A stretch of 64,000 bases of DNA from a virus. Position 1 is the first letter of the stretch; the number at the start of each line of letters is the position of its first letter. The stretch covers positions 10,143-74,142 of the IMG/VR virus record IMGVR_UViG_3300037475_000122, one strand, 5' to 3'. Of the stretch, positions 4,518-63,436 are shown piece after piece. Both the position numbers and the translations under genes were made by a program. The notes below the pieces were generated by a model. That model was not told the DNA's origin and made no database searches. It saw only the letters and a program-made list of their open reading frames with translations.

Positions 4518-5227
4518 AAAAGCTACTCATTGCAATCCAATTCTGGGAACGAGACAAAGAGCAAGCGATGAAAGTCGCCCGGCTCATCGCGGACCTTCAG
4601 CCCGGCTTCTGCGACCTCGCGGACTTCATGTTCGTCGCGCGCTTCGACTGTGAGCAGGACATGAAGACCATCGAGCACGTCTCACGGAAGTTCAACGTCC
4701 ATCATTTCATCAACTCGCGCTTCCGTGGCGCGGAGTGGCCGCACGGCTGCAACTCACTTTGGTTCGGCACCATGGACTACATTTTTTCCATGACCGAGGC
4801 GAAGCGCATTCCGGACTACAAGGCCGTCCTCACTTGCGAGGCGGACTCCGCGCCCCTCTCGCCCAACTGGATTTCTGAACTCAGTCAGGCGTGGGACAAG
4901 GCGAACGTGAAGGTCCTCGGTGCGATGCAGACCAACCCGGCCCCGCACGTCAACGGCAACGCACTTTTTAGCTGCGACCTCCCGTTTCTGAAGTGGATTG
5001 CCCGGGACATCGCCGGATGCACGCCGCACGCGGGCTGGGATTTCGTTTTGGCAAACGCCTTCAAGAAAAAAGGTTGGGCGGACTGCCCGGCCATGCGGTC
5101 TTGGTGGGGATACCCTACCATGAGCAAGGAAACCTTCGACCAACTCGGCCGCGAGGGGGTCGTGTTTTTCCACGGTTGCAAGGACGATTCCATGGTCCGG
5201 CACGTCCGCGAACGGTTTGTCCCTTGA
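4514..5227 (+). CDS. Putative glycosyltransferase-like protein
   Basis: Start at ATGA overlap 4514 (MKKLLIAIQF); hydrophobic strand followed by CEAD (DxD-like), HVNGNALF, GWD, FFHGCK. Confidence 0.5.
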   Translation: MKKLLIAIQFWERDKEQAMKVARLIADLQPGFCDLADFMFVARFDCEQDMKTIEHVSRKFNVHHFINSRFRGAEWPHGCNSLWFGTMDYIFSMTEAKRIPDYKAVLTCEADSAPLSPNWISELSQAWDKANVKVLGAMQTNPAPHVNGNALFSCDLPFLKWIARDIAGCTPHAGWDFVLANAFKKKGWADCPAMRSWWGYPTMSKETFDQLGREGVVFFHGCKDDSMVRHVRERFVP

Positions 5228-5251
5228 CAATTTCGGCGAGGTGTGAACCTT
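5224..5251 (+). promoter_or_regulatory. Late-class promoter for capsid gene
   Basis: TTGACA-N16-AACCTT. Confidence 0.7.
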
Positions 5252-5395
5252 GTCACAGAGACTAATCCTCCTCCGTCTCGGGAGAAACGGGCCTAAATCG
5301 TTTCGTGGCCGGAAACGTGATAGAAGACCTTAAGAGGTCGAACTCGTTTAACCCGGTTTCAGGATTCACCTGAACCAAAGAAAGATTCCGATTTT

Positions 5396-6667
5396 ATGGC
5401 CGACTGTATTGCAGCTTCCGCTCTCTCCGACATCAGCAAGAAAGACACGTCCCGTCTCGTGGGCACCGTGGCAAAGGCTCTTGCTGCGAATTCCCCCTTC
5501 ATCAACGTTTTCGAGGGCGGCACCTTCCCCTCCGGCGTGTCCGATGAAATCCGCACCTCCGTCCAGATGCAGGCGGCTCCCGGCGACTCCCTCGCCCTGC
5601 CCACCTTCGTTTGCGACACCGATTTGTGCGGCACCCAAGGCTTGCAGGACCTCACCGACTCGATTGATTTCGTGGCCCGCCTCGAATCGAAGCGCGGCAA
5701 GGGTCCCCGGGTCTGCGTGAAGAAAGGCTTCGCGAACTACAAATCCAGCTACCTCGCTGCCGAGGACTCGCTGAAGAAACTGGTGACTCAGTATATCAAT
5801 GCTGACACCCGGGCGCAGGCTTACCTCCGCTCCGCTTCCAAATTCACGGCCCGCACCGGCTACGACTTCAACTCGCTGTTCACTGGTGGTAACCCCACCG
5901 ACATCGGCGTGAAGTTCGCCCCGCTGCTCCCGACCGGCGGAATCTCCTTCAAGGCGCTCCACTTCCTCGCGCGCTACCTGAAAGAGAACCTTTTCGCTGA
6001 CATGTTCGAGGCGGCTGGCGAAGGCATGCCTCACTTCCGGTTCATCGGAAGCTCCGACGTGGTCAACGCTCTCCGCGAAGAGGCTGGCGTCAAGGACGTG
6101 CTGCTCTCCTTCGTCAATGGTTCCTACAAGTTCGGCGAACAGGCTCTCCGGGGCTACTCGTTCGAGACCGCTGGGGCCTATCGTGGCATCAGCTTCGGCA
6201 TCGACCAACGCCCTCTGCGTGCGTCCGGCTTCACGGCCGGTGGTTTGCTGAACCTCATCGACCCGCTCACCATCGTGACGAACGCGTCGAAAAACACCGC
6301 GTATGCGAAAGTCAATCCCGCGTGGTTGACGGCCGACTACGAGGTCGCGTTCCTCTTCGCTCAGCGCAGCTTCCGCCGGTTGGTTCCGGAACGCTACGTC
6401 GGCGAGGGCTCCTTCAAGTTCGCCCCGCAGTTGATGATGGGCGAGTTGAACTGGCACTATGTCGAAGACAACGACTGCAACACTTGGGGCGACTTCGGGT
6501 GGCACAAGTATCAGATTACTCGCGCCTACCAGCCCGAGCGACCTGAGTTCGTCGTTCCGATTCTCGTGAAACGCTGCCCCGGTGACCTCGGCCTCGTCGC
6601 TTGCGACCCTGCCAGCCCGTCCAGCTACACGGGCGCTGACACTTACACCACTGTTGGGGTCTGCTAA
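5396..6667 (+). CDS. Major capsid protein
   Basis: 423 aa, strongly biased codons, own promoter and terminator, follows the scaffold region. Confidence 0.8.
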   Translation: MADCIAASALSDISKKDTSRLVGTVAKALAANSPFINVFEGGTFPSGVSDEIRTSVQMQAAPGDSLALPTFVCDTDLCGTQGLQDLTDSIDFVARLESKRGKGPRVCVKKGFANYKSSYLAAEDSLKKLVTQYINADTRAQAYLRSASKFTARTGYDFNSLFTGGNPTDIGVKFAPLLPTGGISFKALHFLARYLKENLFADMFEAAGEGMPHFRFIGSSDVVNALREEAGVKDVLLSFVNGSYKFGEQALRGYSFETAGAYRGISFGIDQRPLRASGFTAGGLLNLIDPLTIVTNASKNTAYAKVNPAWLTADYEVAFLFAQRSFRRLVPERYVGEGSFKFAPQLMMGELNWHYVEDNDCNTWGDFGWHKYQITRAYQPERPEFVVPILVKRCPGDLGLVACDPASPSSYTGADTYTTVGVC

Positions 6668-6692
6668 GGGTTGGTCGGCCCTGACTTCAGAG

Positions 6693-6730
6693 CCGGGCTT
6701 GGACCGCAAATCCAAGCCCGGTTTTTTCTT
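6693..6730 (+). terminator. Rho-independent terminator
   Basis: CCGGGCTTGGA-ccgcaaa-TCCAAGCCCGG followed by TTTTTTCTT. Confidence 0.9.
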
Positions 6731-6735
6731 AAACC

Positions 6736-6981
6736 ATGAAAGAACAACTGAAAGTTTACTCGGCCGCGCTTCTCGGCTTCGGCGCTCCGGCGACGAATTG
6801 GTTTGTCGAAGTCGCGGAACCACTCTTGAAACTTCTTCTCCTCGTCGGCCAAATCGGTGTCGCCACTGCAACCATTTTTTACATCGTGGCGAAGTGGCGC
6901 AAGGTCCAGAGCGAACGCGCCGACCAACAGAAGCGGAACGACCGGCTCGACCGCATCGACCGCCTCGAAAACGAAGACTGA
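6736..6981 (+). CDS. Putative holin
   Basis: 81 aa, hydrophobic segments and a highly charged C-tail, next to a lipoprotein. Confidence 0.5.
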   Translation: MKEQLKVYSAALLGFGAPATNWFVEVAEPLLKLLLLVGQIGVATATIFYIVAKWRKVQSERADQQKRNDRLDRIDRLENED

Positions 6982-7716: not shown

Positions 7717-7717
7717 T

Positions 7718-9069: not shown

Positions 9070-10242
9070 ATGGCAAAAGTTTCTGATTACCCGGAAGAGC
9101 TAGGCGCAAACCCCGAGGGGTTTTTGTTCATGGCTGTTCGGCAACCGGACGGCAAGTTCAAGACGAAGAAAATCGCGCCTGACCGCGTGGGCGCGCAAGG
9201 CCCGGTCGGTCCCGGCGGCGCAACTGGCCCCACGGGTGCGACGGGCGGAGTTGGCCCGGCCGGTCCTGCCGGTCCCGCAGGCCCTACCGGCGCGACGGGC
9301 TCTCAGGGTCCCGCAGGCACGAACGGCACCAACGGAACGAACGGCACCAACGGCACCAACGGAACGAACGGCACGAACGCGACGGTCGTCGGCGAGATTC
9401 AAAACTACGACGGCATCGTGTATGAGAATTTCGATGACTACTCCGCTGGCGCAATCGCCACTCTCGACAAGGGCCTCGGCTGGGATGACAACGGCATTTG
9501 CACCGGCGCGACCATCGTGACGAAGACCAAGGCCGGGAATGGGACGTCTCCCACGGAGAAGCGATTGTCCATCGACAACGGGGAGTATATCCGGAAAATG
9601 CCATGGGGCGACGGATGGAATCGCCTGCAAATTTTCATTCAGTTCCGCGTGGGCAGCGTGGCCGCAGCGTTCACGGGCCTCGGGTATCTCGGCATCTGTT
9701 CCGGGCAGACCAACACGGCCGGGACCGCAGCGACGGACAATTTCGTCGGCCTCGTTTTCAACAAGGGGGTCAACGGCTGGACATTTGCAAACGGCACCCG
9801 CGTGGACTACACGGGATTTGCGTCGGGTCAAACTTTCATTACTCGCCGGGGCAACACCGATTCGAGTTGGGGCGGCACCGCCGGGTCCGACGGGCGCAAG
9901 TATTCCGTCACCGAGGGCTACACGTCCATTCTGATGCTGGACCTACAGCGCCCGGTTTTTGCGAACGACGCTTCGTCCGTGAATTACGACGGCTCCGTCC
10001 GCAGCACCGATTTGACTCACGTCGAATTTTCTTCGGCGAAGACGGCCCTTTGGAACTTGCTCCACAATGACGACCTCGTTACCAGCGGTGCGGCGGTTCG
10101 CGTCATCGGAAGCGGCGTGGAAACCCCTCCGTCGGTCGCGTTCGACCAATCGACGGGCAAGCTCGATACACTGAACTTCGTCTGGCCCGTGGCCGGGAAG
10201 CAGTTTGAAATCGCCGCCATCGGCGTCCACAAACTCTATTGA
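9070..10242 (+). CDS. Collagen-repeat fibre protein
   Basis: MAKVSDYP N-terminus, about 20 G-X-Y triplets, beta-rich C-terminal domain. Confidence 0.75.
   Translation: MAKVSDYPEELGANPEGFLFMAVRQPDGKFKTKKIAPDRVGAQGPVGPGGATGPTGATGGVGPAGPAGPAGPTGATGSQGPAGTNGTNGTNGTNGTNGTNGTNATVVGEIQNYDGIVYENFDDYSAGAIATLDKGLGWDDNGICTGATIVTKTKAGNGTSPTEKRLSIDNGEYIRKMPWGDGWNRLQIFIQFRVGSVAAAFTGLGYLGICSGQTNTAGTAATDNFVGLVFNKGVNGWTFANGTRVDYTGFASGQTFITRRGNTDSSWGGTAGSDGRKYSVTEGYTSILMLDLQRPVFANDASSVNYDGSVRSTDLTHVEFSSAKTALWNLLHNDDLVTSGAAVRVIGSGVETPPSVAFDQSTGKLDTLNFVWPVAGKQFEIAAIGVHKLY
9316..9378 (+). repeat. 9-bp tandem repeat encoding (GTN)7
   Basis: GG(C/A)AC(C/G)AAC x7. Confidence 0.9.
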
Positions 10243-10267
10243 CTCGGACCCCCGTTTTTACAACCTT
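10239..10267 (+). promoter_or_regulatory. Late-class leaderless promoter
   Basis: TTGACT-N17-AACCTT-N5-ATG(10273). Confidence 0.75.
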
Positions 10268-10272
10268 ATTCT

Positions 10273-10602
10273 ATGGCTGCATACCCTATCGACCTCGGAC
10301 GGAAGTCCGGCCCCTTCCCCACCGAAGCCGTCAACCCGACGGAAAAGCACTATCCGACGTTGTATCTCGACGACATCGGCAGCGAAATGGATTTGCCGGA
10401 CGACGGGCTGATGACCGTGCGCTTCCACAAGACTTCCGAAACCACGACCGACCGCGAAGGAAAGAAAACGCAGTGCGTGTGCATCGAGGTCCAAGAGATT
10501 GTCAAAGTCAAGGGCGAAGCGCCGAAGGAGGACGAGAAGTCCCCGGGCGAAGTGCTTGACGAACTGCTCGCGGAGAAACAGAAAGAGGGAGAGGATTACT
10601 GA
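10273..10602 (+). CDS. Hypothetical acidic protein
   Basis: 109 aa, own promoter, overlaps the next start. Confidence 0.7.
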   Translation: MAAYPIDLGRKSGPFPTEAVNPTEKHYPTLYLDDIGSEMDLPDDGLMTVRFHKTSETTTDREGKKTQCVCIEVQEIVKVKGEAPKEDEKSPGEVLDELLAEKQKEGEDY

Positions 10603-17541: not shown

Positions 17542-19128
17542 ATGCCCGGCATCGCCTCAGACCGTTCTCCCGGAATTCAGATTGGACCCATCGCGTCCAT
17601 CGGAAGCGACATCACTCCGACGCCTGCCGTCGGCGACATGATGGATGCTTTCCGTTCAGGCTTCATCACCGTTGACGACCTGAAGAAACGCGTGAAGCAG
17701 GAGGCGTTGGACACCGACGCCATGAAGACCCAACTTCAGGCCGGGGACATTCAACGCAAGCTCGCGCCCGGCGCGGCGGAGAACGCACTCGCGCAGCAAT
17801 CGCTCACGGCCGACCAAATCCGGGCCGCTCAGGCGGTTCTCCCCGGTGCCACGAAGTTGACTCTCGGCGGACAGACGCTCGCCCAACAGGAGCAGGACCG
17901 TCAGGCCGCGCTCACGAGCGACGACGTCACCATTCATCAGAAGGCCCTTGAGGACGCGACGAAACGACAATACATCGACACGTTCGGCCACGAGCCGCCC
18001 AAGTCGATTGCGATTCCCAACCCCAAGCCGGTGGACCCGTTCGACGTGTGGCTCGAAAAGGAGCACGGTGCGGATTTGCAGAAGCGAATCAACGAATTCG
18101 ACCCCGGCGTCCCGGACCCGAAGGAACTCGAAGCGACCATCACGGAGAAGGTCAACAATTTCAAGAGTGGGTATCCGCTGAATTCCCGCGAGGACAACAT
18201 CGAGCGCGCGAAGTTCGCGAACCAACTCGAAGAGCAGGCGAAGAACGTCCCCAACCCGGACGCCCTCCGCGCTCAGTTCGCCAATCAGGCCGCGCAGGAA
18301 CTCCGCGAGAACCCGGCCATCCGGACTCAATACGAAACCTACAAGCTCGAACAGTCGAACGCGAAAGACAAGGTCGTTCTCGGCACGCCGGAGCATACGG
18401 AAATCATGCGCCAGCGGATTCAGGACGCGCAGGACAAGGCCGCGCTCCGAGCCGCGAAAATCACCGCGCTTCCCAAAGTTTTGGAAGAGCAGGCGACGCT
18501 CCCCGGCAAGCTGGCTCAGAAGGAAGTGGAGAACAAAGGCAAAGCGGCAGGCGATGTCTTGCTGGAACTCCACAAGAGCGAGTCGTTGAAACGTTTCGAG
18601 CCTCAGTTCGAGGCGTTCGAGAAGGTGGACTCCATCCGCAACAGCGGCCGACCGCCCACAAACGCCGACGACATCGCGGTTCTTTACGAGTTCGTCAAGC
18701 TGCTCGACCCCACGTCGGCCGTCCGCGAAGGTGAAGCCAAGCTCGCGCAGTCCACGGTCCCCGGGGTGAAGGCGATGTATAACAAGGTCCTCGGCCTTTT
18801 CACTGACCACAATAAAATCATGGACCCGCAGGCGCGCGAGTCGATGTTTCAGACGATGGACACCCTCCGGGACGGCGCAATCAAAACCGTCGCTCCCGAA
18901 ATCAAGCGCATCTCGAACATCGCCATCGACCGGGGAGTTCCGCTCGACCAAGTTTTTTCCGGACCCTATCAGGCCATCCTCACGAAGAACGGCCGAGGTC
19001 CCGGCGCGGCTCCGGCTGGCAACCTCCCGCCCCCGGGCGGCTCCAAACGGGTCATCCCGTCGGAAGGCCCATATAAGGGCAAGACGTTGGAGTGGGACGG
19101 CGCACGGTGGACTCTTATCGGCCCTTGA
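17542..19128 (+). CDS. DNA ejection / internal virion protein
   Basis: 528 aa helical; D..VLYEFVKLLDPTSAVREGE motif. Confidence 0.6.
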   Translation: MPGIASDRSPGIQIGPIASIGSDITPTPAVGDMMDAFRSGFITVDDLKKRVKQEALDTDAMKTQLQAGDIQRKLAPGAAENALAQQSLTADQIRAAQAVLPGATKLTLGGQTLAQQEQDRQAALTSDDVTIHQKALEDATKRQYIDTFGHEPPKSIAIPNPKPVDPFDVWLEKEHGADLQKRINEFDPGVPDPKELEATITEKVNNFKSGYPLNSREDNIERAKFANQLEEQAKNVPNPDALRAQFANQAAQELRENPAIRTQYETYKLEQSNAKDKVVLGTPEHTEIMRQRIQDAQDKAALRAAKITALPKVLEEQATLPGKLAQKEVENKGKAAGDVLLELHKSESLKRFEPQFEAFEKVDSIRNSGRPPTNADDIAVLYEFVKLLDPTSAVREGEAKLAQSTVPGVKAMYNKVLGLFTDHNKIMDPQARESMFQTMDTLRDGAIKTVAPEIKRISNIAIDRGVPLDQVFSGPYQAILTKNGRGPGAAPAGNLPPPGGSKRVIPSEGPYKGKTLEWDGARWTLIGP

Positions 19129-19153
19129 CGGTTGGACAGGTGAGGGGAACCTT
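19125..19153 (+). promoter_or_regulatory. Late-class leaderless promoter
   Basis: TTGACG-N17-AACCTT-N5-ATG(19159). Confidence 0.75.
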
Positions 19154-19158
19154 CCCCT

Positions 19159-26577: not shown

Positions 26578-26720
26578 ACGCAGACTTCACACCAATCGAA
26601 TTCGAGGACCTGAAGCTGACCCCCGAGGAGGCAAAACTCATCGACGTCGGCGCTAAGGTTTTCATGCAGACCGAGGACCCCCGGGACAACGAACGATTCC
26701 TTGACGCACCCAAGCCCTAA
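26574..26720 (+). CDS. 48-aa acidic protein (not in ORF track)
   Basis: ATGA overlap with the giant gene stop; MNADFTPIEFEDLKL... Confidence 0.6.
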   Translation: MNADFTPIEFEDLKLTPEEAKLIDVGAKVFMQTEDPRDNERFLDAPKP

Positions 26721-26729
26721 GCCAACCTT
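26701..26729 (+). promoter_or_regulatory. Late-class leaderless promoter
   Basis: TTGACG-N17-AACCTT-N5-ATG(26735). Confidence 0.75.
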
Positions 26730-26734
26730 CTACC

Positions 26735-27301
26735 ATGCCCATCAATCTTCAGGATAGCCTTCCCCAGCCGCCCGCAGCCGCAGCCCCCGCCGATGACGAA
26801 GGGGGCGGGATTCCGGACGAGGTTTTGCAAATCCCCGCGTTCGCCGGTCTCCTCCGTGGCACTCCCCCGGCCGTTTGGGCGGAGAACGGAGTCAAGAGCC
26901 CCGAGGGGGACATCATCGTGAAGAACCAGAAGCCGCTGGCAGAGGCGGGTTTCGGCTTCTACAACTCCCCGGACAAGAAAACGAACGTCGTCTTCAACTC
27001 TCAGTTCACCAGCCTGCCCGAAATCGAGGCGATGGACAAGGCCGGGAAGCTGCGCGACTTTGCAACCCCGATTGACGACCTCCGGGCCGCGTTTGCCGGT
27101 TCTGAAGCCCCGCCGGAGGGTGCAGCCGCCCCGCCCGCTCCCGGAGGCCCCGCCCAAGTCGCCCCCGTGCCGCCTAATGCGTCGCTGGACAAAAAGCTTG
27201 CCACCGCCCGCATTTCCAACGCTCAGCCCGGAAGCCCCACTTCCGGCCCCGTGCCCGGCCAAGGGCGCATCCTGAACTCCATCATGAAGCCAACCGTGTG
27301 A
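26735..27301 (+). CDS. Hypothetical late protein
   Basis: 188 aa, own promoter. Confidence 0.7.
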   Translation: MPINLQDSLPQPPAAAAPADDEGGGIPDEVLQIPAFAGLLRGTPPAVWAENGVKSPEGDIIVKNQKPLAEAGFGFYNSPDKKTNVVFNSQFTSLPEIEAMDKAGKLRDFATPIDDLRAAFAGSEAPPEGAAAPPAPGGPAQVAPVPPNASLDKKLATARISNAQPGSPTSGPVPGQGRILNSIMKPTV

Positions 27302-28687: not shown

Positions 28688-28693
28688 GCCCCT

Positions 28694-28721
28694 ACTATCG
28701 CACAGAATCAGTCCTTGTCAA
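28694..28721 (-). promoter_or_regulatory. Early-class leaderless promoter
   Basis: TTGACA-N16-GATAGT-N6-ATG with extended TG. Confidence 0.75.
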
Positions 28722-34670: not shown

Positions 34671-34700
34671 AAGGTTCCACAAAGCAGGGTGCTTTGTCAA
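34671..34700 (-). promoter_or_regulatory. AACCTT-class promoter for primase-sigma operon
   Basis: TTGACA-N18-AACCTT. Confidence 0.55.
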
Positions 34701-39404: not shown

Positions 39405-39409
39405 GAGTC

Positions 39410-39437
39410 ACTGTGCCACACTTTCGCTCGTTGTCAA
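39410..39437 (-). promoter_or_regulatory. Early-class leaderless promoter
   Basis: TTGACA-N16-CACAGT-N5-ATG with extended TG. Confidence 0.6.
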
Positions 39438-50895: not shown

Positions 50896-51095
50896 TTTTT
50901 CTTCGGGTAAAGGCTGGTCCTGATGGTGACCTTCTGCAAAGCGGGGTGAAGGAGTCGCAGTGCGGCGACCCCCTCGCCCCCGAGGGTTGGCAGGAGAAGG
51001 ACGGCGCTATTTTTTGGCGAGACGCGAGCCGGAATTCCGGACTTGCGTAGGTCGCACGCGATAGCGCCGAGAAATGTTTTGGAGACGAACGGCAT
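50892..51095 (-). CDS. Hypothetical protein
   Basis: MPFVSK start directly after promoter. Confidence 0.55.
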   Translation of the reverse strand: MPFVSKTFLGAIACDLRKSGIPARVSPKNSAVLLLPTLGGEGVAALRLLHPALQKVTIRTSLYPKKK

Positions 51096-51313
51096 TATTT
51101 TACGGTCCCACACAGCGGCGGGGATGTCAAGGGTTTTTCGAGTTCAGAGCGCACAAGGTTTATGTATTTGTCGAGGTCGCGGATGTAAGTCAACATGCTT
51201 TCCAGTTGCGCCCGGTCATCCCAGAGCAAGGTCCATGCCTGAATCCGGACGACCTTCGCCCCCTGCGACTTCAAGGCGGCGACAAGCTTAACGGTGAAAC
51301 ATTCATTCACCAC
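51095..51313 (-). CDS. Hypothetical protein
   Basis: About 72 aa, GTG start. Confidence 0.5.
   Translation of the reverse strand: MVNECFTVKLVAALKSQGAKVVRIQAWTLLWDDRAQLESMLTYIRDLDKYINLVRSELEKPLTSPPLCGTVK
51102..51130 (-). promoter_or_regulatory. Early-class leaderless promoter
   Basis: TTGACA-N17-GACCGT-N6-ATG with extended TG. Confidence 0.6.
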
Positions 51314-51482
51314 GGATGACCTCCCGGTAGAAGCTGACCGCGAGGAAGCACAGGACGGGGCAGAGGAGGGCCAGCAATGCGGCCGTTCCGTATCCGTCGG
51401 GCAGTGCTGCGGCGAGCAGGCAGAACATCATGTAAAGGCCCGCGCAGGCCATCTTTTCGGACTCGGGTCGAATTCTTTTCAT
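51303..51482 (-). CDS. Small membrane protein
   Basis: MKRIRP start, two hydrophobic segments. Confidence 0.55.
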   Translation of the reverse strand: MKRIRPESEKMACAGLYMMFCLLAAALPDGYGTAALLALLCPVLCFLAVSFYREVIRGE

Positions 51483-51487
51483 GGTGC

Positions 51488-51515
51488 AAGGTATCACAGT
51501 TTCGGCGGTTGTCAA
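51488..51515 (-). promoter_or_regulatory. Leaderless promoter
   Basis: TTGACA-N16-TACCTT-N5-ATG with extended TG. Confidence 0.7.
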
Positions 51516-51784
51516 GCGATGTAGCAAACGGCCTCGTAGGTTCCGGAGTCCATCCGATAGACGTTCAGAGTCAATCCGCGTTTCGCCATCCGGCCCGCGA
51601 TGACCTTGCCCTTGTATTCCGAGAGCAATCCAGCCCGGCGGACGGTCTGCCCGTAATTCACGCCGCCGAAGGTGAACGGATAGAAAAAGTCTTCCGGGTC
51701 GGCCAGCACGGAGCGGGTCTCGACGAGGTAAGCCCGCACGGCATCGAGTGCTTCGGAGAGGGTCTTGAAGAAGTTTTCTTTCAT
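51512..51784 (-). CDS. Early hypothetical protein
   Basis: 90 aa; FKTLSEAL..YRMDSG.YE..CY. Confidence 0.7.
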   Translation of the reverse strand: MKENFFKTLSEALDAVRAYLVETRSVLADPEDFFYPFTFGGVNYGQTVRRAGLLSEYKGKVIAGRMAKRGLTLNVYRMDSGTYEAVCYIA

Positions 51785-51790
51785 GCCGAA

Positions 51791-51819
51791 ACTATCGCAC
51801 AGCGCGGGGCGGTTGTCAA
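51791..51819 (-). promoter_or_regulatory. Early-class leaderless promoter
   Basis: TTGACA-N17-GATAGT-N6-ATG. Confidence 0.8.
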
Positions 51820-52037
51820 ATTATTTCGGTCTCTCGAACGAATCTTTTGTGCGCCCCGGGATTCTCCGTCGGCTGCACGAGGTAGCCGTGCGGGTGCTCC
51901 CGATTTCTCCACGGGCAGGCCGGGTCTTGCGAATCTTCGACCTCAACGACCTTGCATTTGACCGTCTGCCCCTGCGGGCGAGTCCACCACGCGCGGACGG
52001 AGACGACCTCCCCTAGGGTGTAGCGCGGCGGGTTCAT
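51816..52037 (-). CDS. Early hypothetical protein
   Basis: MNPPRY start. Confidence 0.55.
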   Translation of the reverse strand: MNPPRYTLGEVVSVRAWWTRPQGQTVKCKVVEVEDSQDPACPWRNREHPHGYLVQPTENPGAHKRFVRETEII

Positions 52038-52336
52038 TTGACGTTCAGGTGGTCGGCGCATCCGATGATGTCCCCAAAGGAGAAGGACGGCGGATTGCCA
52101 ATGGCCGGGGCGTCCTCGCGCTGCGGCCGAATTCCGGTCTCGGCCTCATGGACCCGGGCGACGGCGTTTAGCGGATTCACTGTGCGCGGCGGCAGTTGTG
52201 GCGGCAGTTCGCGCGCCAGCCGGAGGGCTTCCCCCTCGGGGATGCGGTCCCAAGTGTCCTTGCCGTCCACCGTGTAAACGGCGTGCCAGAGGGTGTCGTA
52301 AGAAGTTTTTCGGATTGTGTGATACTTTGTTTTCAT
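52034..52336 (-). CDS. Early hypothetical protein
   Basis: 100 aa, coupled. Confidence 0.6.
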   Translation of the reverse strand: MKTKYHTIRKTSYDTLWHAVYTVDGKDTWDRIPEGEALRLARELPPQLPPRTVNPLNAVARVHEAETGIRPQREDAPAIGNPPSFSFGDIIGCADHLNVK

Positions 52337-52521
52337 GAGATGATGTTCACCGCGAGTCTGTTGAAAAGTTCTTTGTGGGCGGCAGCTTCCCGGACGTTAG
52401 AAAACTTCTTCCGGATGTAAAGGTCGATTCCGATTGTGACGCTGCCCCGGTCGAGTTTCTTCGACTCGCCCCACCACGAGGGCCGGAACTTGCCCGCGCG
52501 GGAATGGTGAAAGAGGTTCAT
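52333..52521 (-). CDS. Early hypothetical protein
   Basis: MNLFHH start, coupled. Confidence 0.5.
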   Translation of the reverse strand: MNLFHHSRAGKFRPSWWGESKKLDRGSVTIGIDLYIRKKFSNVREAAAHKELFNRLAVNIIS

Positions 52522-52799
52522 TTTAGGTTCACGAGGCCGTGTATGATGCCGAGAGTTTCCCGGCGGGTGTATTCGTTCATCGTGGAGAGGAACAGTGACG
52601 CGACCTTCTCCGCGTCCTCGCATCGAAAATACATGTAGGCCAGCCCGTCCACTGCGGCCTTCCGCATTGCCTCGGGTTTCGCCCAGAACCGGCGGTCACC
52701 CATGAACTCGCGCATGCGGTTCAGTTCCTCAAGGAACTCCGTTTCCGTGAACGGCCCGGCGGTCTCCCGCCCCGGTGTGTTGAGGGTTGCGGCGTTCAT
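52518..52799 (-). CDS. Early hypothetical protein
   Basis: MNAATL start, coupled. Confidence 0.55.
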   Translation of the reverse strand: MNAATLNTPGRETAGPFTETEFLEELNRMREFMGDRRFWAKPEAMRKAAVDGLAYMYFRCEDAEKVASLFLSTMNEYTRRETLGIIHGLVNLK

Positions 52800-53218
52800 C
52801 GGAGATAAGCGGCACCGAACGAGGTGACCGCGTTGTTCCACCAGTTTTCCCAAGTGCCGATGCGGATGTTGCCCCGGGCGTGCTTCGCGGCCTTGTTCAT
52901 CCCCTCGGCCTTCAGGATGTCGCCGTTGCTCATGTCGATGAACAGGCAGACCGAAACGTGAGTGCGGCCGATTTCGCGCCCGTCCTGAAGTCCGGCTTCC
53001 GTGACGTGCAACAGCTTGGCCTTTTTCGGGCCGGTGCTCACTTCGAGGACGCGCCAGTTGACGGGGCAGTTAGGATAATCCTCGTGGCCCTCGGCGTTGA
53101 TGAGAGCGGAGTATCGGGAGGCGAAGTCGAACAACTCGACCTCGGAGACCGGCCCCCGGGAGCGCGCCTCGTTCATCGCGGCGACCCAATTTGAAACTTG
53201 TTCAGGAGTGTTTTTCAT
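52796..53218 (-). CDS. Conserved early phage protein
   Basis: SV..FID..NGDILKA....AAKHARGNI..GAAYLR. Confidence 0.7.
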   Translation of the reverse strand: MKNTPEQVSNWVAAMNEARSRGPVSEVELFDFASRYSALINAEGHEDYPNCPVNWRVLEVSTGPKKAKLLHVTEAGLQDGREIGRTHVSVCLFIDMSNGDILKAEGMNKAAKHARGNIRIGTWENWWNNAVTSFGAAYLR

Positions 53219-53224
53219 GTCGAT

Positions 53225-53253
53225 ACATTAGCGCACCTCGGCACCTTTGTCAA
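53225..53253 (-). promoter_or_regulatory. Early-class leaderless promoter
   Basis: TTGACA-N17-TAATGT-N6-ATG. Confidence 0.8.
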
Positions 53254-53261
53254 ATTTTATT

Positions 53262-54080
53262 TTAGAGAACCGCCACGATTTCGCAGCGGCGGCAGCAGGC
53301 CGCGTGCTGGTTGCAGAGGCACAGAAGGAGGTCTTCCGCGCTCTTCGCCCCGGCGACGTAGTCCGTGCGCTTCACAGAGTAGCCGGTCATCGGGTGCCCA
53401 ATGACGGAGAACTCGGCGACGACGTAGGACTTCGGGAAAAACTCAACCCAAAACTGCGGGTTGTGGACCCGGGCCGCGCAGAAGTCGGGGTGAGCCGCTG
53501 CGGCTTCGCGGATGGTGCGGAAGCTGCGGACAACGACGTTGAACCGGGCCAGCACGTCATCGGCTTCGTTGTTGGCCGCTGCGGTCTTGTTCATCTCCAA
53601 CTTGTGCAGGGCCGTCTTGCACTCGCTCAGAAGCCGCCCGTGCGTGATTTCGGATTGAATCGCGAAGTTGGTCCACGCGTCGGAACGGTCGGGGCTGTTG
53701 TCCGCGTAACGCAGGCGGAGGTCAAGGCGCTCGAAGTCGAACAGCTTGGCGCGAATCTTGCGGGCCTCGGAGATGCGGGCGCAGCGGGCGAAATAGACTT
53801 CCAGCTTGTCGGCCCCTACGGCAACGGCGGCTTCCTTCAGGAGGGCCGGGGTGAGTTTCTGGGAGACCTTGCCAGAGCCGGAGCATTGAAAGCAGGTCGT
53901 GCCATAGGCTTGGCAGTAAGAATACTGGCCGCAGCCCCCGCAGCGTCCGCAGGTCTGTTCGAGGCCGATTCCGATGAGCCGCTGTTGAACCTTCTTAACC
54001 GCGTGCGCCTCGCTCAGGGCGGCATTGACGCGGAGCAGCGTGCGAAACTCCGGGAGGAGAGTAAGTTCTTTTTTGTTCAT
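53262..54080 (-). CDS. Early protein with DnaJ-type CxxCxGxG zinc finger
   Basis: CGRCGGCG..CFQCSGSG; start at 54080 set by the promoter. Confidence 0.65.
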   Translation of the reverse strand: MNKKELTLLPEFRTLLRVNAALSEAHAVKKVQQRLIGIGLEQTCGRCGGCGQYSYCQAYGTTCFQCSGSGKVSQKLTPALLKEAAVAVGADKLEVYFARCARISEARKIRAKLFDFERLDLRLRYADNSPDRSDAWTNFAIQSEITHGRLLSECKTALHKLEMNKTAAANNEADDVLARFNVVVRSFRTIREAAAAHPDFCAARVHNPQFWVEFFPKSYVVAEFSVIGHPMTGYSVKRTDYVAGAKSAEDLLLCLCNQHAACCRRCEIVAVL

Positions 54081-54086
54081 GCCGAC

Positions 54087-54115
54087 ATTATCGCACAGCG
54101 CGCGGCAGTTGTCAA
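54087..54115 (-). promoter_or_regulatory. Early-class leaderless promoter
   Basis: TTGACA-N17-GATAAT-N6-ATG. Confidence 0.8.
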
Positions 54116-54390
54116 GCGGGAATGATTTCCCATTTTGTGAACGGGCCGGGGCAGGTGAAGCCCTCAAGCTTCGGGCCGGTTTTCTGCGAGACGAACAGGC
54201 ATTGAAAGCCGTTCAGCTTAAGCCAGCGGTGCGCCGCTTCGGCGTCCGGGAAGCGTTTGGCCTCGGCCTTGTGCGTCACCGCGAACGAGTGGTCAAAAGT
54301 CTTGTGGCGGGTCTGCCCGTAGCGGTAAATCGGGGGCGCGTCGGTGTCGATAGCGCGCCGAAGGGTGAGCCGGACAACACACGCGCTCAT
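54112..54390 (-). CDS. Early hypothetical protein
   Basis: MSACVV start, coupled. Confidence 0.55.
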   Translation of the reverse strand: MSACVVRLTLRRAIDTDAPPIYRYGQTRHKTFDHSFAVTHKAEAKRFPDAEAAHRWLKLNGFQCLFVSQKTGPKLEGFTCPGPFTKWEIIPA

Positions 54391-54656
54391 CGGGTCAGTG
54401 CCCTTTCCAGCACGCATCCGACAGCGGCATCGAGTCCGCCCTCGGCCGCATAGAATGACGCGGTGAACCGGCCCGGGACGCCACGAAAAGCGCGCCAAGG
54501 GTTGATTTCGGTTCGGGTGTTGCGGAACCGGGAGACCGTGCCCGCTTCGAGCGCGCCGACTTTGACACAATACACGGCTTCCGAGGAGCACGGGCGGCTA
54601 ACCAGCACGAGTTGGACGTCGGCCAGCACGGGGGATTTGAGAGCGGGTGTTTTCAT
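54387..54656 (-). CDS. Early hypothetical protein
   Basis: MKTPAL start after promoter. Confidence 0.6.
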   Translation of the reverse strand: MKTPALKSPVLADVQLVLVSRPCSSEAVYCVKVGALEAGTVSRFRNTRTEINPWRAFRGVPGRFTASFYAAEGGLDAAVGCVLERALTR

Positions 54657-54662
54657 GGCGAC

Positions 54663-54691
54663 AAGATAGCCCATCATGGGCCGGTTGTCAA
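54663..54691 (-). promoter_or_regulatory. Early-class leaderless promoter
   Basis: TTGACA-N17-TATCTT-N6-ATG. Confidence 0.8.
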
Positions 54692-54694
54692 GTT

Positions 54695-55183
54695 TTAGTT
54701 GTTGTCGTGTTCGCCAAATCCGCACAAGCGGCGTTCGGCCTGATGCAGTTCGTCGCGGACGGATTTGACGGCGGCGCGAGCGGCGGCGATTTCCTCGGCG
54801 CTGTAGTTGGTCCGGCAGTAGGCGGAGGTGGGCGGTTCGGCCAGCTTCGTAAGGGTCTTGCCGTCGATGTCGCCGAGGTTGACCGTCTGCGTTTCGTAAA
54901 CGCAGCCCTTGTCGTGCCCGACGCACGTCCGGAACTCGGCGCGGAACCAATAGCGTTCGGCGCGGATGATGACCTGAAGCTGCCCGTTGACGGGGCAGGA
55001 GTCCGGCAGGTTCAGCGCGTCGAGCGCCTTTTGCAGCTTGGCGGTTTTGCCGCCGGTTTGAAGGAGGACCGACTGCCCGAGGAACGGGGCGAGGGCGGCG
55101 ATGATACGCGGGCCGTATTCGAGGGCGGCGGCGTTGGCGAGGTTGCGGGCTTCGACTTTGGCTTGGAGACGTGTGTTATTCAT
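54695..55183 (-). CDS. Early hypothetical protein
   Basis: 162 aa. Confidence 0.7.
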   Translation of the reverse strand: MNNTRLQAKVEARNLANAAALEYGPRIIAALAPFLGQSVLLQTGGKTAKLQKALDALNLPDSCPVNGQLQVIIRAERYWFRAEFRTCVGHDKGCVYETQTVNLGDIDGKTLTKLAEPPTSAYCRTNYSAEEIAAARAAVKSVRDELHQAERRLCGFGEHDNN

Positions 55184-55189
55184 GCCGAT

Positions 55190-55218
55190 ACAATATCACG
55201 GGACCTTGCGGTTGTCAA
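55190..55218 (-). promoter_or_regulatory. Early-class leaderless promoter
   Basis: TTGACA-N17-TATTGT-N6-ATG. Confidence 0.8.
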
Positions 55219-55219
55219 A

Positions 55220-55597
55220 TTATTTCAGCAAAAAAGTTTCGAGCCATGCGCGGGCGGCTTCCGGCATCTCCGGCCCGTTCGTCGCGCCGCAAACAGTTGT
55301 CGTGCCAACCAGCGGGCCGGAAACATCGGCCGGGAATTCCCGGACCTTCCGGCCGTTCACATAGCCGTTCCAGTTGCCCCACTGATTCTGCTTCACCGTC
55401 GGCTTGTAGCGGTTGGGGTCCTCCGTCACCCGGGCCAGTTCTTCAACCAGCCGGTCGAGTGCGGCCGGGCTGGGGTCGAGCAGGATTGCGCGGCCTTCTC
55501 CGTCGTGGCCCATGCGGTCATCGAGCACTAGCGCAATCGCGCGGCGGCGAAAGGCGGGGCCGTCCATCTCATGAAAAGGAGTTGCTAGAGCGTTCAT
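55220..55597 (-). CDS. Early hypothetical protein
   Basis: MNALAT start; NQWGNWNGY. Confidence 0.6.
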   Translation of the reverse strand: MNALATPFHEMDGPAFRRRAIALVLDDRMGHDGEGRAILLDPSPAALDRLVEELARVTEDPNRYKPTVKQNQWGNWNGYVNGRKVREFPADVSGPLVGTTTVCGATNGPEMPEAARAWLETFLLK

Positions 55598-55983
55598 GCC
55601 GTGGTGATTTTGGATTTGTCGAGCGTGGCGTGATTGTCGGAGTTGAGATTTGTCCAGCACGTTTTAACCAGCCCGTCGCGCGGGGTCTCGATGGCGATTG
55701 CCAGCACGAGGGACCGCTCTTTGGGGTCGTTGGGGACCGGGCGGCGCACAACGATTTTCAAGACGTGGTTCAGGTGGTTCGTCTCCACTTCGACGAGTTG
55801 CCAGCCCTCGGCCAGCTTGAACGTCCGCGCATAGTCGGCAGTCTTCAAGACGCCGTAGTGGTCGCGCACGGCTTCGAGCATCGCGTGCCGGGTCCATCGC
55901 AGCGCGAGGTTGTAGCCCTTCACGAGGTTGACGATAGGTTCGGGGATTCCGACGGCGGCGTTGAAAAGCTTGGTGTTGTTCAT
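55594..55983 (-). CDS. Early phage protein, possible BECR/RelE-like RNase fold
   Basis: WTRHA..KIVVR..LVLAI..VKTCWTN..D.H.TLD. Confidence 0.5.
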   Translation of the reverse strand: MNNTKLFNAAVGIPEPIVNLVKGYNLALRWTRHAMLEAVRDHYGVLKTADYARTFKLAEGWQLVEVETNHLNHVLKIVVRRPVPNDPKERSLVLAIAIETPRDGLVKTCWTNLNSDNHATLDKSKITTA

Positions 55984-55989
55984 GGTCGT

Positions 55990-56017
55990 ATTATAGCACG
56001 GGCACCGCGTTTGTCAA
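55990..56017 (-). promoter_or_regulatory. Early-class leaderless promoter (perfect consensus)
   Basis: TTGACA-N16-TATAAT-N6-ATG with extended TG. Confidence 0.85.
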
Positions 56018-56364
56018 TACGTGGCCGTCGTTGTGGGTTGCTTGCGGCCGGACCACGTCTCATAGTGGATGTCGGTCACCTTGTCAAGTCCATCGTCGCA
56101 GGTGTAATCTGACACAATGACGCCGGGCTCGTTGCCGAGCACGAGGTAAAGGTTCAGCCGTTTGCCTTCCGGGGACCGGACCCCGAGGGCGGCTTCGTCA
56201 CACGCAATCAAGTTTTCAATGAAGGTGTCGAGGTTGCCGTCAAATTTGAAGGTCTCCTCGCCGTTGTTACCGCACAGCAGAACGAAGCCAGCGGCGGTCA
56301 AGGTGTTCAGGAGGCTCAGGGTTTCCGGCTTCCAGTCGTTGATAATTCGGGGGGTGTTATTCAT
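56014..56364 (-). CDS. Early hypothetical protein
   Basis: MNNTPR start after promoter. Confidence 0.7.
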   Translation of the reverse strand: MNNTPRIINDWKPETLSLLNTLTAAGFVLLCGNNGEETFKFDGNLDTFIENLIACDEAALGVRSPEGKRLNLYLVLGNEPGVIVSDYTCDDGLDKVTDIHYETWSGRKQPTTTATY

Positions 56365-56370
56365 GGCAAG

Positions 56371-56399
56371 AGTATCGCACAGCGGGCGCACGTTGTCAA
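56371..56399 (-). promoter_or_regulatory. Early-class leaderless promoter
   Basis: TTGACA-N17-GATACT-N6-ATG. Confidence 0.8.
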
Positions 56400-56405
56400 A
56401 TTATT

Positions 56406-56726
56406 TCACCAAGTAATTTCGGCCGACATCGTCGCGGAGCAGTGGGCAAAGGCCCAATTAGGGCGCTCCTCAACAAGTTTCATGCCAATCTCCGCGCACA
56501 GCGCCGCGAGGTCCACGGCGTCATGATAAAAAGCTTGGCGATAGACGCCGCCGCTCACCGTGCGAATTTTGAACGTCTTTTTGTCCTTGCAGTATCGCAG
56601 CGGCGGGGACCACTCTTTGCTGGTGACCGTGCCGCACTCGTAAGTTGTCGGCGTGCTCTGCCCCGGCCATCGGCCCGGCTTCGACGGATACTTGACCGGC
56701 GCTTTGCAGTAGGGGCAGGCGTTCAA
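56406..56726 (-). CDS. Small zinc-ribbon protein
   Basis: TTG start overlapping upstream stop; CPYC..YECG..C. Confidence 0.5.
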   Translation of the reverse strand: MNACPYCKAPVKYPSKPGRWPGQSTPTTYECGTVTSKEWSPPLRYCKDKKTFKIRTVSGGVYRQAFYHDAVDLAALCAEIGMKLVEERPNWAFAHCSATMSAEITW

Positions 56727-56968
56727 AACACGTCCTCCCGGTCGCCGCCGTATTCGATGCCCCGGTCGATGCCCGGGCGGCAGTTCCCACCGATTGCCGG
56801 GCGGTCGGCGAATTCGTATCCCAACTCGCGGGCCTGCACCTTGAGGTCGCGCTCCCAGAGGCGGGAGACCGGCGAGTTCGGCGGGTTCTTCAGGAGGAAG
56901 AGCAGGCACTTTTCGGTGTGGTCGAGGAGGGAGTCGCGCTCCGCACGGGTCATCTTGATTTTGCTCAT
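56723..56968 (-). CDS. Early hypothetical protein
   Basis: MSKIKM start after promoter. Confidence 0.6.
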   Translation of the reverse strand: MSKIKMTRAERDSLLDHTEKCLLFLLKNPPNSPVSRLWERDLKVQARELGYEFADRPAIGGNCRPGIDRGIEYGGDREDVF

Positions 56969-56974
56969 GGTGTG

Positions 56975-57003
56975 ATTGTCGCACATGTCGCGCGCGTTGT
57001 CAA
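56975..57003 (-). promoter_or_regulatory. Early-class leaderless promoter
   Basis: TTGACA-N17-GACAAT-N6-ATG. Confidence 0.8.
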
Positions 57004-60514: not shown

Positions 60515-60515
60515 G

Positions 60516-60818: not shown

Positions 60819-60819
60819 A

Positions 60820-61203: not shown

Positions 61204-61257
61204 GGTCAGTGTTTGGTCATAGGGTTAAATCACAATCGCACATGTGCCCGGTGTTTG

Positions 61258-61497: not shown

Positions 61498-61509
61498 GGT
61501 TTGTGGTGG

Positions 61510-62061: not shown

Positions 62062-62074
62062 GGGTTGTGTTGGG

Positions 62075-62422
62075 TTAGTTGTTGGGGATTCGTTTCGGTG
62101 CAGTGCGGTTGTAAATCTCCGCCTGCTCTGCGAGGGATTCGCAAAAGTCTTTCATGGGCTTGAATGCCTCGGCCTGCTCTTCAGGTGTCATCTTGGCGAG
62201 CCGCTTCGACCTCGGGTTCGGGATTGGTTGGCCGTCGTGCCGTGGCTCGAATAGGCCGCTCATCTCGCTCTGTAGGTCCATGAGATGACGACGCAGCGTT
62301 TCAAGTCGGGTGCCCGTGCGATGCTTCAGGACTAGCGTCTGATGCTTTTCGAGAAGCACGAGGAAGTCTTGCGCGGCGAAATACAATTCGACCGCATCCG
62401 GGTTGTCAGTGGGTTGACTCAT
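62075..62422 (-). CDS. Hypothetical protein
   Basis: 115 aa. Confidence 0.6.
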   Translation of the reverse strand: MSQPTDNPDAVELYFAAQDFLVLLEKHQTLVLKHRTGTRLETLRRHLMDLQSEMSGLFEPRHDGQPIPNPRSKRLAKMTPEEQAEAFKPMKDFCESLAEQAEIYNRTAPKRIPNN

Positions 62423-63084
62423 TTGGTGCTCTGTTCGGGGTCGAGGTCGAGAACGAGTTTGCAGCGCACGATGAGCTTGGACAGTTGGAACTGTGCCGCG
62501 CGGAATGCGGCGGACGTAAGTTCCAATTCAGGCGCGACGTGCTTTGCCTGTTCGTGCGAAGGCATGTCAAGTTCAGTCAGGGTCTTCACGAGATTCAACT
62601 CGTTCATCAGATTCAGGCAATGGGCTTCGAGATGGATGAGCGCCTTGCGCCGCTTCTGGTCCCGGCGTGATGTGAGCTTTTCAGAGCCGAGGCCGCAATG
62701 CCCCACAATGAAGTCGAGCCGCCGCGATGCCTCAACGTCGATATTCAATCCGGCGCGCTCACTCTCCGCCTTCAGCTTTGCATAGAGCTTTTGCAACCGC
62801 TCCTTGCCGTATTTATTCTCAGTCTCTTGGTTGTCCAGTTCGAGGAAGACTTGAGCCGGGCAATTGGGCACTGGCTTGGACTTCACGAACGGCAGGAAGT
62901 AACGCAACAGTGCGTCGTATGCCTGAGCGGCTTGGCGTCGTGACTCGGTGAACGGGCCGAAGTGATTCTGTCGCCCATTGAGCAAGAGGACGGCGAGATA
63001 GCCGCGCTGTTTCTCATTGCGAGAGACGCCTCGGAAGGGCGTTTTGAAGTCTTCCCAATCTAAAGGCAAAGATTTATTGTCCAT
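62419..63084 (-). CDS. AP2-domain DNA-binding protein
   Basis: FRGVS..Y.A....GRQ.H.G.F...AA.AYD. Confidence 0.65.
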   Translation of the reverse strand: MDNKSLPLDWEDFKTPFRGVSRNEKQRGYLAVLLLNGRQNHFGPFTESRRQAAQAYDALLRYFLPFVKSKPVPNCPAQVFLELDNQETENKYGKERLQKLYAKLKAESERAGLNIDVEASRRLDFIVGHCGLGSEKLTSRRDQKRRKALIHLEAHCLNLMNELNLVKTLTELDMPSHEQAKHVAPELELTSAAFRAAQFQLSKLIVRCKLVLDLDPEQSTK

Positions 63085-63089
63085 GCTAC

Positions 63090-63118
63090 AAGGTTATACA
63101 TCTGTGCAAATATGTCAA
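63090..63118 (-). promoter_or_regulatory. AACCTT-class leaderless promoter
   Basis: TTGACA-N17-AACCTT-N5-ATG(63084). Confidence 0.7.
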
Positions 63119-63220
63119 GGGCTGGCGGAGTGACGCTGAGTCAGGTATATAAATACTTTTTGGTGTGTTGAGGGTGCGGCGTTGAGCCGCTGAGGCTTAG
63201 AGGCGATGAGGCATAAAGTC

Positions 63221-63355
63221 ATAGAATAGAATCACACGTCGCCAAAGTTTTTTCTTGGTGGAGAGATGTCTTCTATTATTACTTCTTTAAAAAGTATTAG
63301 TAATATCTGTTATATACCGGAGAAAAACTTTTTCGGAGGTGTGATTCTATTCTAT
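63221..63355. repeat. AT-rich imperfect palindrome, about 135 bp
   Basis: Perfect 17-bp arms ATAGAATAGAATCACAC (63221-63237) and GTGTGATTCTATTCTAT (63339-63355). Confidence 0.85.
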
Positions 63356-63407
63356 TTATTTGTGCTGGGATTGCGCTGGCGCGCAGCCCACTTTTCTCAA
63401 GCGGATG

Positions 63408-63436
63408 TTGACGGCGTGCGCCTACGCGCCAACCTT
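63408..63436 (+). promoter_or_regulatory. Late-class leaderless promoter
   Basis: TTGACG-N17-AACCTT-N5-ATG(63442). Confidence 0.75.

Follow-up and report, generated by a model that had tools for sequence, protein, structure and literature searches.

Which sigma factor reads a promoter-like motif that joins an ordinary −35 element, TTGAC, to the unusual −10 box AACCTT? The question is raised by a 64,000-nucleotide stretch of phage DNA (hereafter the window), bases 10143–74142 of the 74,142-bp IMG/VR record IMGVR_UViG_3300037475_000122, where a genome coordinate equals the window coordinate plus 10142. The phage is uncultivated, and its record is rated complete by CheckV, with a GC content of 59.7%. 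An earlier note on this sequence proposed that the motif marks a late promoter class recognized by a phage-encoded sigma factor with a rewired −10 recognition helix. Our computations covered the statistics of the motif, the distribution of promoter classes along the genome, the domains and residues of the sigma factor, and the boxes used in related lineages. From the sequences, the phage sigma factor most likely reads the AACCTT class, an assignment that we regard as probable. Beyond the earlier proposal, leaderless mRNAs are implied and a second, canonical class of promoters with an extended −10 element is present.

The hexamer AACCTT alone is only mildly enriched in the window, with 40 occurrences against 25.3 expected, and the signal therefore resides in its pairing with TTGAC. 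The dyad TTGAC-N18-AACCTT has five exact matches against 0.02 expected, and none of 100 shuffled sequences contained five or more. These matches begin at window positions 10239, 19125, 26701, and 63408 on the plus strand and 63118 on the minus strand, and at all five an ATG follows exactly 5 nt past the box. Every coordinate in the earlier note proved correct, as did its count of five sites that share a 17-nt spacing and this ATG. Across the whole 74-kb phage, eight exact dyads with N17 or N18 are found where 0.1 would be expected, and counting near variants brings the total to 11 sites, hereafter class 2.

All 11 class-2 sites are co-oriented with the downstream gene. When they are aligned on the box, the sixth base past it is A in ten and G in one, and this purine is kept also at the four sites lacking an ATG at that point. 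At the remaining seven the purine is the A of the ATG; this fixed position implies leaderless mRNAs. The core ACCTT is invariant in nine of the 11 sites, no consistent TG accompanies it, and a C immediately precedes TTGAC in eight. Co-orientation, the fixed purine, and the sigma-70-type geometry together indicate that the motif behaves as a promoter, as had been proposed.

The individual sites fall mostly on the plus strand. The first in the window (TTGACA-N16-AACCTT, 5224..5251, N17 after TTGAC) has no ATG at the box; its predicted start is the A at 5257, which would leave a leader of some 139 nt before the next gene. That gene begins at 5396 and encodes a conserved 423-aa virion-arm protein (5396–6667), called the capsid in the earlier note and treated here as a putative capsid. 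An orthologous AACCTT site exists in the relative L004. Leaderless starts are predicted at TTGACT-N17-AACCTT-N5-ATG (10239..10275) for a 109-aa gene (10273–10602) that follows a tail-fibre-like gene, and at two copies of TTGACG-N17-AACCTT-N5-ATG, one (19125..19161) for the 2472-aa giant protein (19159–26577) and the other (26701..26737) for a 188-aa gene (26735–27301), the last on the plus arm. In the divergent intergenic region, one plus-strand site (63408..63444, leaderless ATG at 63442) heads the packaging and virion arm. A minus-strand site (63082..63118, leaderless ATG at 63084) heads the opposite arm, with a 221-aa gene (62419–63084) and an operon of unknown genes of about 5 kb. The second minus-strand site (TTGACA-N18-AACCTT, 34671..34700) carries one extra spacer base, or N19 after TTGAC; transcription is predicted to start at the A at 34665, with the ATG of the primase 13 nt past the box, at 34657.

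Four further class-2 sites lie in the part of the record outside the window. Three precede genes, namely an exact site at genome 943, the variant GACCTT at genome 9090, and the variant AACTTT at genome 9926. The fourth heads a non-coding stretch (genome 5251–6142; L159) of about 890 nt without an open reading frame (ORF), which holds a tRNA-Met (5470–5544) and a tRNA-Lys (6056–6128). At four sites, genome 5251, 15366, 20381, and 29267 (the last three being window 5224, 10239, and 19125), the TGA within TTGAC is also the stop codon of the upstream ORF, and the gap from that stop to the next start is thus set by promoter geometry. A relaxed scan also returned window positions 13823 (AACCTA), 31316 (−), and 45641 (−); these lie within genes with no start downstream and are treated as chance. 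The literature, searched for AACCTT in the role of a −10 box, yielded nothing of relevance, and an IMG/VR-wide scan for TTGAC-N18-AACCTT-N5-ATG matched more than 112 contigs with one match each, which is the level of chance.

A broader scan for TTGAC-N17–19-nAnnnT-N5–7-ATG returned 22 sites, 15 of which form a second class, class 1. These share the form aaataaTTGACAA, about 11 nt, TGTGnGATAnT, 6 nt, and ATG, that is, TTGACA-N17-TGnTAnnnT-N6-ATG; a stricter canonical leaderless form has 13 sites against 0.05 expected. Judged by its consensus, class 1 is a textbook primary-sigma promoter with an extended −10 element, and transcription is predicted to start at the A of the ATG. Ten class-1 leaderless promoters of the form aaataaTTGACAA-N~11-TGTGnGATAnT-N6-ATG precede small genes on the minus strand (51093..57003), with TTGAC beginning at 51130, 51515, 51819, 53253, 54115, 54691, 55218, 56017, 56399, and 57003. 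Another minus-strand site reads TTGACA-N16-CACAGT-N6-ATG with TGg before the box (39402..39437), and two more, with TTGAC at 28012 and 28721 (27975..28721, −), precede the last two minus-arm genes. The remaining two are on the plus arm outside the window, one before a small ORF and one before a serine recombinase. The second codon is AAn in 12 of the 15. The −10 element itself is variable, and its boxes include TATTGT, GATAGT, CACAGT, TAATGT, TACCGT, GACCGT, and TACCTT; A is never found at the first position.

The two classes are distributed unequally between the arms, with nine plus-arm and two minus-arm sites in class 2 against two and 13 in class 1 (Fisher p = 0.0009). An independent consensus scan gives a similar picture. 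In 44001–64000, where 4.4 ± 1.8 canonical sites would be expected, it found 14, every one on the minus strand; eight score at least 10/12, and seven of these eight carry TG. In 1–20000 it found four against 2.7 expected, none above 9/12. The virion arm is therefore essentially without host-type promoters, and the AACCTT sites are its sole recurrent promoter-like signal. It is this contrast with class 1 that makes a reading with two sigma factors credible. The description of class 2 as late holds insofar as the class is concentrated on the packaging and virion arm; it is not purely late, since the site at 63118 heads the minus-arm operon of about 5 kb and that at 34700 precedes the primase and sigma genes.

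The candidate reader is a 233-aa protein encoded on the minus strand (31731..32432), directly after a primase/helicase-like protein with a DUF5906 domain (32429..34657, −) whose stop codon overlaps the sigma start as ATGA. The protein exceeds the Pfam cut-offs for region 1.2 (Sigma70_r1_2, 23.5 against 22), region 2 (PF04542, 28.5 bits against 24, residues 44–110), and region 4 (PF04545, 46.9 bits against 24.1, residues 174–221), and it scores 69 against 42.9 bits with TIGR02937. By these profile matches it is a member of the sigma-70 family. It gives no match to PF04539, the region 3 that its cellular homologs possess. AlphaFold predicts the structure with a mean predicted local distance difference test (pLDDT) score of 74, placing helices at residues 22–110 (regions 1.2 and 2) and 155–226 (region 4); between them, residues 111–154 form a predicted disordered linker, with pLDDT below 50 over most of its length and no helical domain.

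Alignment by phmmer to RpoS places 'lsrervrqih' opposite 'ltrervrqiq', so that the RERVRQ of region 4.2 is kept, and 'gfpfraflipyvraaiarc' opposite 'gfrfstyatwwirqtiera' in region 2. This agrees with the earlier description of an RpoD-like region 4.2 beside an altered region 2.3–2.4. In the residue numbering of Escherichia coli sigma-70, the alignment to RpoS and RpoH gives Y430F, W433P, W434Y, Q437A, and T440A; with F, P, Y, A, and A at these positions, the protein lacks the residues of a primary (group 1) sigma factor. Nor does it approach any equivalog cut-off, scoring 60.6 against 323.1 for RpoH, 67.1 against 378.7 for RpoS, and 44 against 572 for RpoD, and its identity to any cellular sigma factor is about 27%. 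A tblastn search of 50,697 phage records returned only weak matches, 22–34% identical, in unannotated uncultured gut phages and to bacterial RpoH and RpoS; peptide-pattern searches in IMG/VR gave no match, and a metagenome scan found only a fragment of the same phage and one 1.4-kb contig. The closest homologs are 14 database proteins, 48–86% identical, of which 13 were aligned (51–86%). Across these 13 the helix FLxPYxRAAxAxCWR is nearly invariant, and close homologs that carry it should share the AACCTT box if the pairing proposed here is right.

These features bear directly on promoter choice. Because RERVRQ is kept, the phage sigma should still read TTGAC; because region 3 is absent, it has no known means of reading the TG of an extended −10 element. 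Class 2, with its TTGAC, its altered −10 box, and no consistent TG, thus fits the features of the phage protein. Region 2 of sigma factors flips out the bases at −11 and −7. An A and a T of AACCTT fall at −11 and −7 in either register, from −12 to −7 or, with the start at the A of the ATG, from −11 to −6. The opposite assignment, in which the phage sigma reads the canonical class and the host reads AACCTT, was considered and rejected, because the canonical class has a TG extension, for which region 3 is required, conforms to the universal primary-sigma consensus, and persists across relatives with different sigma factors.

Relatives provide a comparative view of the pairing. Searches with the 423-aa protein found 124 IMG/VR stretches at 65–83% identity, many on contigs of 68–75 kb; 80 loci were kept, and 15 complete or nearly complete relatives were assembled, giving 16 genomes including this phage (G000). 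Each of the 16 proved, in an iterative profile search, to encode a single full-length sigma homolog, leaving no sigma-less relative in which to look for the motif. The sigma homologs are 26–43% identical where BLAST aligns them, compared with 65–83% for the putative capsid, and the sigma factor therefore evolves much faster than the virion protein.

The late boxes, assessed by counts against shuffled sequences and by site lists, differ from lineage to lineage. The dyad TTGAC-N17/18-AACCTT, with its eight copies here, occurs zero to one time in the other 15 genomes, and in 50 further family records only three give single matches, one of them the orthologous site upstream of the 423-aa gene. G003 instead carries 12 invariant copies of TTGAC-N17-GGACCTT (0.0 expected). 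From site lists only, CATCTT or AATCTT is found in G002, L006, and L007, and ACTTCT in G004 and G010. A far clade of ten genomes has CACTGTTTA-like boxes with no TTGAC partner (seven against 0.7 expected in G014, six against 0.7 in G012). Enrichment of the general form TTGAC-N17/18-nAYYTT is confined to the six near-clade genomes, with 4–14 sites against about one expected. Promoter-like elements at orthologous places, before the primase, the portal-side gene, and the 109-aa and 188-aa genes, carry different boxes, and canonical promoters are enriched in most genomes irrespective of the sigma sequence. A host-type class that stays constant while a phage-type class drifts with the sigma factor is what a cognate pair predicts.

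Within the sigma factors, use of the −35 element appears to track region 4.2 across the two clades. Near-clade proteins keep R584 in all six cases, with E585 and R588 also kept in five, and their late boxes are linked to TTGAC; far-clade proteins have lost E585 and R588 in nine of ten, and their late boxes are not so linked. The rewiring proposed for region 2.3–2.4 fares less simply. The tryptophan dyad, Q437, and T440 are indeed absent from the phage protein, but the entire sigma family of these phages shares this loss, as does RpoH. Moreover, the proline at W433 is present in G002, G003, and G004, whose boxes (CATCTT, GGACCTT, and GACCTT) differ from AACCTT. Since relatives with the same substitutions use other boxes, W433, W434, Q437, and T440 alone cannot specify AACCTT.

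A two-stage transcription programme on the host core RNA polymerase would accommodate these observations; in it, the assignment of sigma to class, the timing, the start sites, and the feedback are what we infer. In the first stage, the host primary sigma would read the roughly 15 class-1 promoters, nearly all on the minus arm, expressing small early genes and then replication genes. Primase and sigma would initially be made by read-through from these promoters, joined by a class-1-like promoter found upstream of PolA. In the second stage, the phage sigma would displace the host sigma on the core polymerase; it would still dock on TTGAC through the RERVRQ of region 4.2, which RpoD and RpoS share, while its region 2 would read ACCTT, preceded by A in this phage. 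Transcription would begin at the purine 6 nt past the box, yielding at seven of the 11 sites an mRNA with neither leader nor Shine-Dalgarno site. Class 2 would thereby drive the terminase, portal, and virion genes, the giant protein, the tRNA array, and the terminal minus-arm operon. The earlier note had pointed to a site upstream of the primase–sigma operon; that site exists, G002 has an orthologous class-2-type site before its own primase, and the site could place the sigma factor under positive feedback.

Several observations weigh against this programme, and some of them favour a single reader. In AACCTT an A is followed four positions later by a T, the spacing of the TAnnnT usable by any sigma-70-family protein, and these two bases keep the −11/−7 spacing beside an exact TTGAC at the canonical distance. 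Three class-1 sites (TACCGT, GACCGT, and TACCTT) have ACC at the same box positions, and the hybrid site 51515, which reads TGaTACCTT, brings the two classes into contact. The minus arm also has two class-2 sites. The contrast between near and far clades is a single phylogenetic split rather than a set of independent events, and calling the −35 element that of the host rests on the universality of primary-sigma promoters. Phage DNA was matched in soil metagenome runs only, and no RNA runs containing window 5000–11000 are listed. Given the A–T spacing and the ACC boxes of class 1, the host primary sigma might read both classes, AACCTT sites being weaker host promoters without TG, possibly with the aid of a modified host sigma or a phage activator, and the phage sigma serving another purpose or an unseen promoter set. 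We consider this unlikely. A factor that tolerates TATTGT, GATAGT, CACAGT, and TAATGT gives no reason for an ACCTT kept in nine of 11 sites, for the 12 uniform GGACCTT sites of G003, or for the exclusion of A from the first position of all 15 class-1 boxes. The box also changes between relatives while canonical promoters persist, and no third motif class was seen that the phage sigma might read instead.

The reader could also be an alternative sigma of the host, similar to RpoH or RpoS, in which case the phage would borrow the promoter of a host stress regulon and its own sigma would be a captured copy of that factor. For region 2, RpoH and RpoS are indeed the top matches among solved structures and in NCBIfam, and the C that precedes TTGAC at eight class-2 sites recalls the −35 element of sigma-32, CTTGAA. 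This origin is nonetheless quite improbable given the low identity to cellular sigmas and scores far below the RpoH and RpoS equivalog cut-offs. Moreover, the box differs among phages of one family, and the dyad is not enriched in the sole bacterial bin with a relative (one match, against one in the control). It is very improbable that the motif is no promoter at all and acts as an RNA-level translation or processing signal, or as a target of the packaging machinery or of a regulator that binds DNA. A translational element could be read into the rigid 5-nt gap before the ATG, and several sites lie within operons right after an upstream stop codon. What such a role leaves unaccounted for is the invariant TTGAC 17–18 nt away, a sigma-70-type geometry, the purine held at sites lacking an ATG, and the ATG geometry that class 1, with its textbook promoters, has in common. 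AACCTT resembles the 3′ end of 16S ribosomal RNA rather than its complement, which we take to weigh against a translational element. A Shine-Dalgarno-like signal and a regulator operator were both considered and rejected as readings of the motif.

The phage sigma reading, to which we return, has clear precedents, and that phage sigma factors switch on late genes is textbook knowledge. In SPO1 (gp28 and gp33/34) and T4 (gp55), a phage sigma replaces the host sigma in a temporal cascade, and a similar takeover of the core polymerase for later genes is proposed here. SPO1 gp28 alters both the −35 and the −10 elements, and T4 gp55 reads only the −10-like TATAAATA and needs gp33 and the sliding clamp. 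By contrast, this phage keeps a host-type −35 element and changes only the −10 box; its far-clade relatives, with CACTGTTTA and no −35 element, look more like the T4 design. Bacterial group 3 and 4 sigmas (RpoH, FliA, and the extracytoplasmic function, or ECF, factors) have likewise lost the tryptophan dyad, Q437, and T440, RpoH having FAVHWIKAEIH there, and they too have a stringent, nearly invariant promoter consensus. ECF factors share the layout of sigma2, linker, and sigma4 and differ in their −35 elements, which are of the AAC type rather than TTGAC. Region 1.2, which the phage protein matches, is not known in ECF factors.

A close functional parallel is found in phage 7-11 and relatives such as phiEco32, where sigma-specific promoters with the core motif TGATGT serve middle and late genes and host-type promoters serve early genes (PMC4331800). 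A phage-type promoter lies upstream of the sigma gene there too, and the sigma factor is inferred to be produced initially by the host holoenzyme and afterwards by the holoenzyme that it forms itself (PMC4331800). The present phage resembles that group, on sequence only, in its phage-encoded sigma-70-family protein, its distinct late consensus, and the site upstream of sigma. It differs in that there is no sequence match, the consensus is the host-like TTGAC with AACCTT, leaderless transcripts are predicted, and no anti-sigma gene was identified in this phage. New here are the promoter consensus, the divergent sigma with region 1.2 and no region 3, the leaderless geometry of both classes, and the lineage-specific series of boxes.

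If the pairing is true, late genes across the family (at least 124 IMG/VR contigs) can be marked from sequence alone, and the family could help to show how region 2 reads a −10 box without W433, Q437, and T440. Compact pairs with the host −35 element in common and a −10 box changed at one or two bases could also serve as orthogonal expression parts. More tentatively, the family may constitute a natural series of mutually orthogonal sigma–promoter pairs, in which the −10 box (AACCTT, GGACCTT, CATCTT, ACTTCT, or CACTGTTTA) and, in one clade, the need for a −35 element change with a fast-diverging core sigma. Were this so, it would offer a recognition code that can be read out for a sigma2 domain able to melt DNA with no tryptophan wedge, and, combined with leaderless expression free of Shine-Dalgarno sites, would point to a host lineage with unusual translation initiation.

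The translation signals merit attention of their own. ORFs were chosen by codon bias, and when the upstream regions of all 88 were listed, no Shine-Dalgarno site was visible upstream of any. Operon-internal genes are instead preceded by A/C-rich spacers, for example AAAACCAACCCAACCC. These features suggest that translation initiation in the host is independent of Shine-Dalgarno sites. An identical string, TAAAACCAACCCAACCC-ATG, is found twice, upstream of window 2326 and at genome 3310. The fixed 5–7 nt from −10 box to start codon and the absence of Shine-Dalgarno sites together form the arrangement of leaderless promoters. In Actinobacteria and Deinococcus, such promoters place the −10 element at a fixed short distance from the start codon, and transcription starts from the A of ATG with no Shine-Dalgarno site. 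The phage shares that short gap and the predicted start at the A; it differs in that host-type and phage-specific classes both show the geometry, and in that operon-internal genes also lack Shine-Dalgarno sites and have A/C-rich spacers. Leaderless-mRNA promoters of mycobacteria are covered in PMC4633059.

Strict promoter–ATG geometry and absent Shine-Dalgarno sites offer a usable fingerprint in the search for the host, for which a candidate-phyla Peribacteraceae bin is the only lead. The sole bacterial-genome match of the putative capsid, at 73% identity, is contig JABFSS010000103.1 (L160) of a metagenome-assembled genome classified as Candidatus Peribacteraceae. That genome, a 1.5-Mb bin (G075), contains 32 TTGAC-N18/19-AnnnT-N6-ATG sites against none in a reversed control, many of them on AT-rich contigs. 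The bin may be a lead to the host, or may contain mis-binned phage contigs.

With ORFs selected by codon bias, two gene arms diverge from a single intergenic region (63085–63441). The plus arm exits the end of the record, resumes at genome base 1, and runs to window 27301; it includes the large terminase (genome 7013–9127, outside the window), collagen-like tail-fibre proteins, the 2472-aa giant protein, and the 423-aa conserved protein. The minus arm runs from 63084 down to 27282, with many small genes first, followed by helicase, two exonucleases, PolA, primase, sigma, and a RuvC-like resolvase. Among the 50,697 phage records, neither a 20-kb megablast query nor a tblastn search with the putative capsid turned up a cultured relative. 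The 423-aa protein matches neither Pfam nor PHROG, and its AlphaFold model, built with 18 homologs, has a pLDDT of 33. Directly 3′ of its gene, a strong hairpin with a T-run (6693–6731, +; GCCGGGCTTGGA...TCCAAGCCCGGTTTTTT) has the form of an intrinsic terminator behind a highly expressed gene. The serine recombinase, outside the window (genome 4340–5060; Pfam Resolvase, E = 5e-23), is located in the late arm and is preceded by a host-type leaderless promoter of its own.

Two k-mer approaches, enrichment before ATG across each genome and Markov-corrected counts of 7-mers, gave too much noise to locate late boxes in the relatives and returned mostly palindromes. GTTTAAA/TTTAAAC occurs 20–38 times against 3.5–9 expected in G009, G011, G014, G018, G020, and G021, and in G021 it is part of 16 copies of the palindrome GTTTAAAC, mostly within genes. 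CTAACAC occurs 25 times in G014 against 4.8 expected, scattered in genes on both strands in a manner that is not promoter-like. In G010, a 12-nt tandem repeat, TGAGAGAAACTA, is present in seven copies (30807–30890) directly after a promoter-like TTGAC...TG site.

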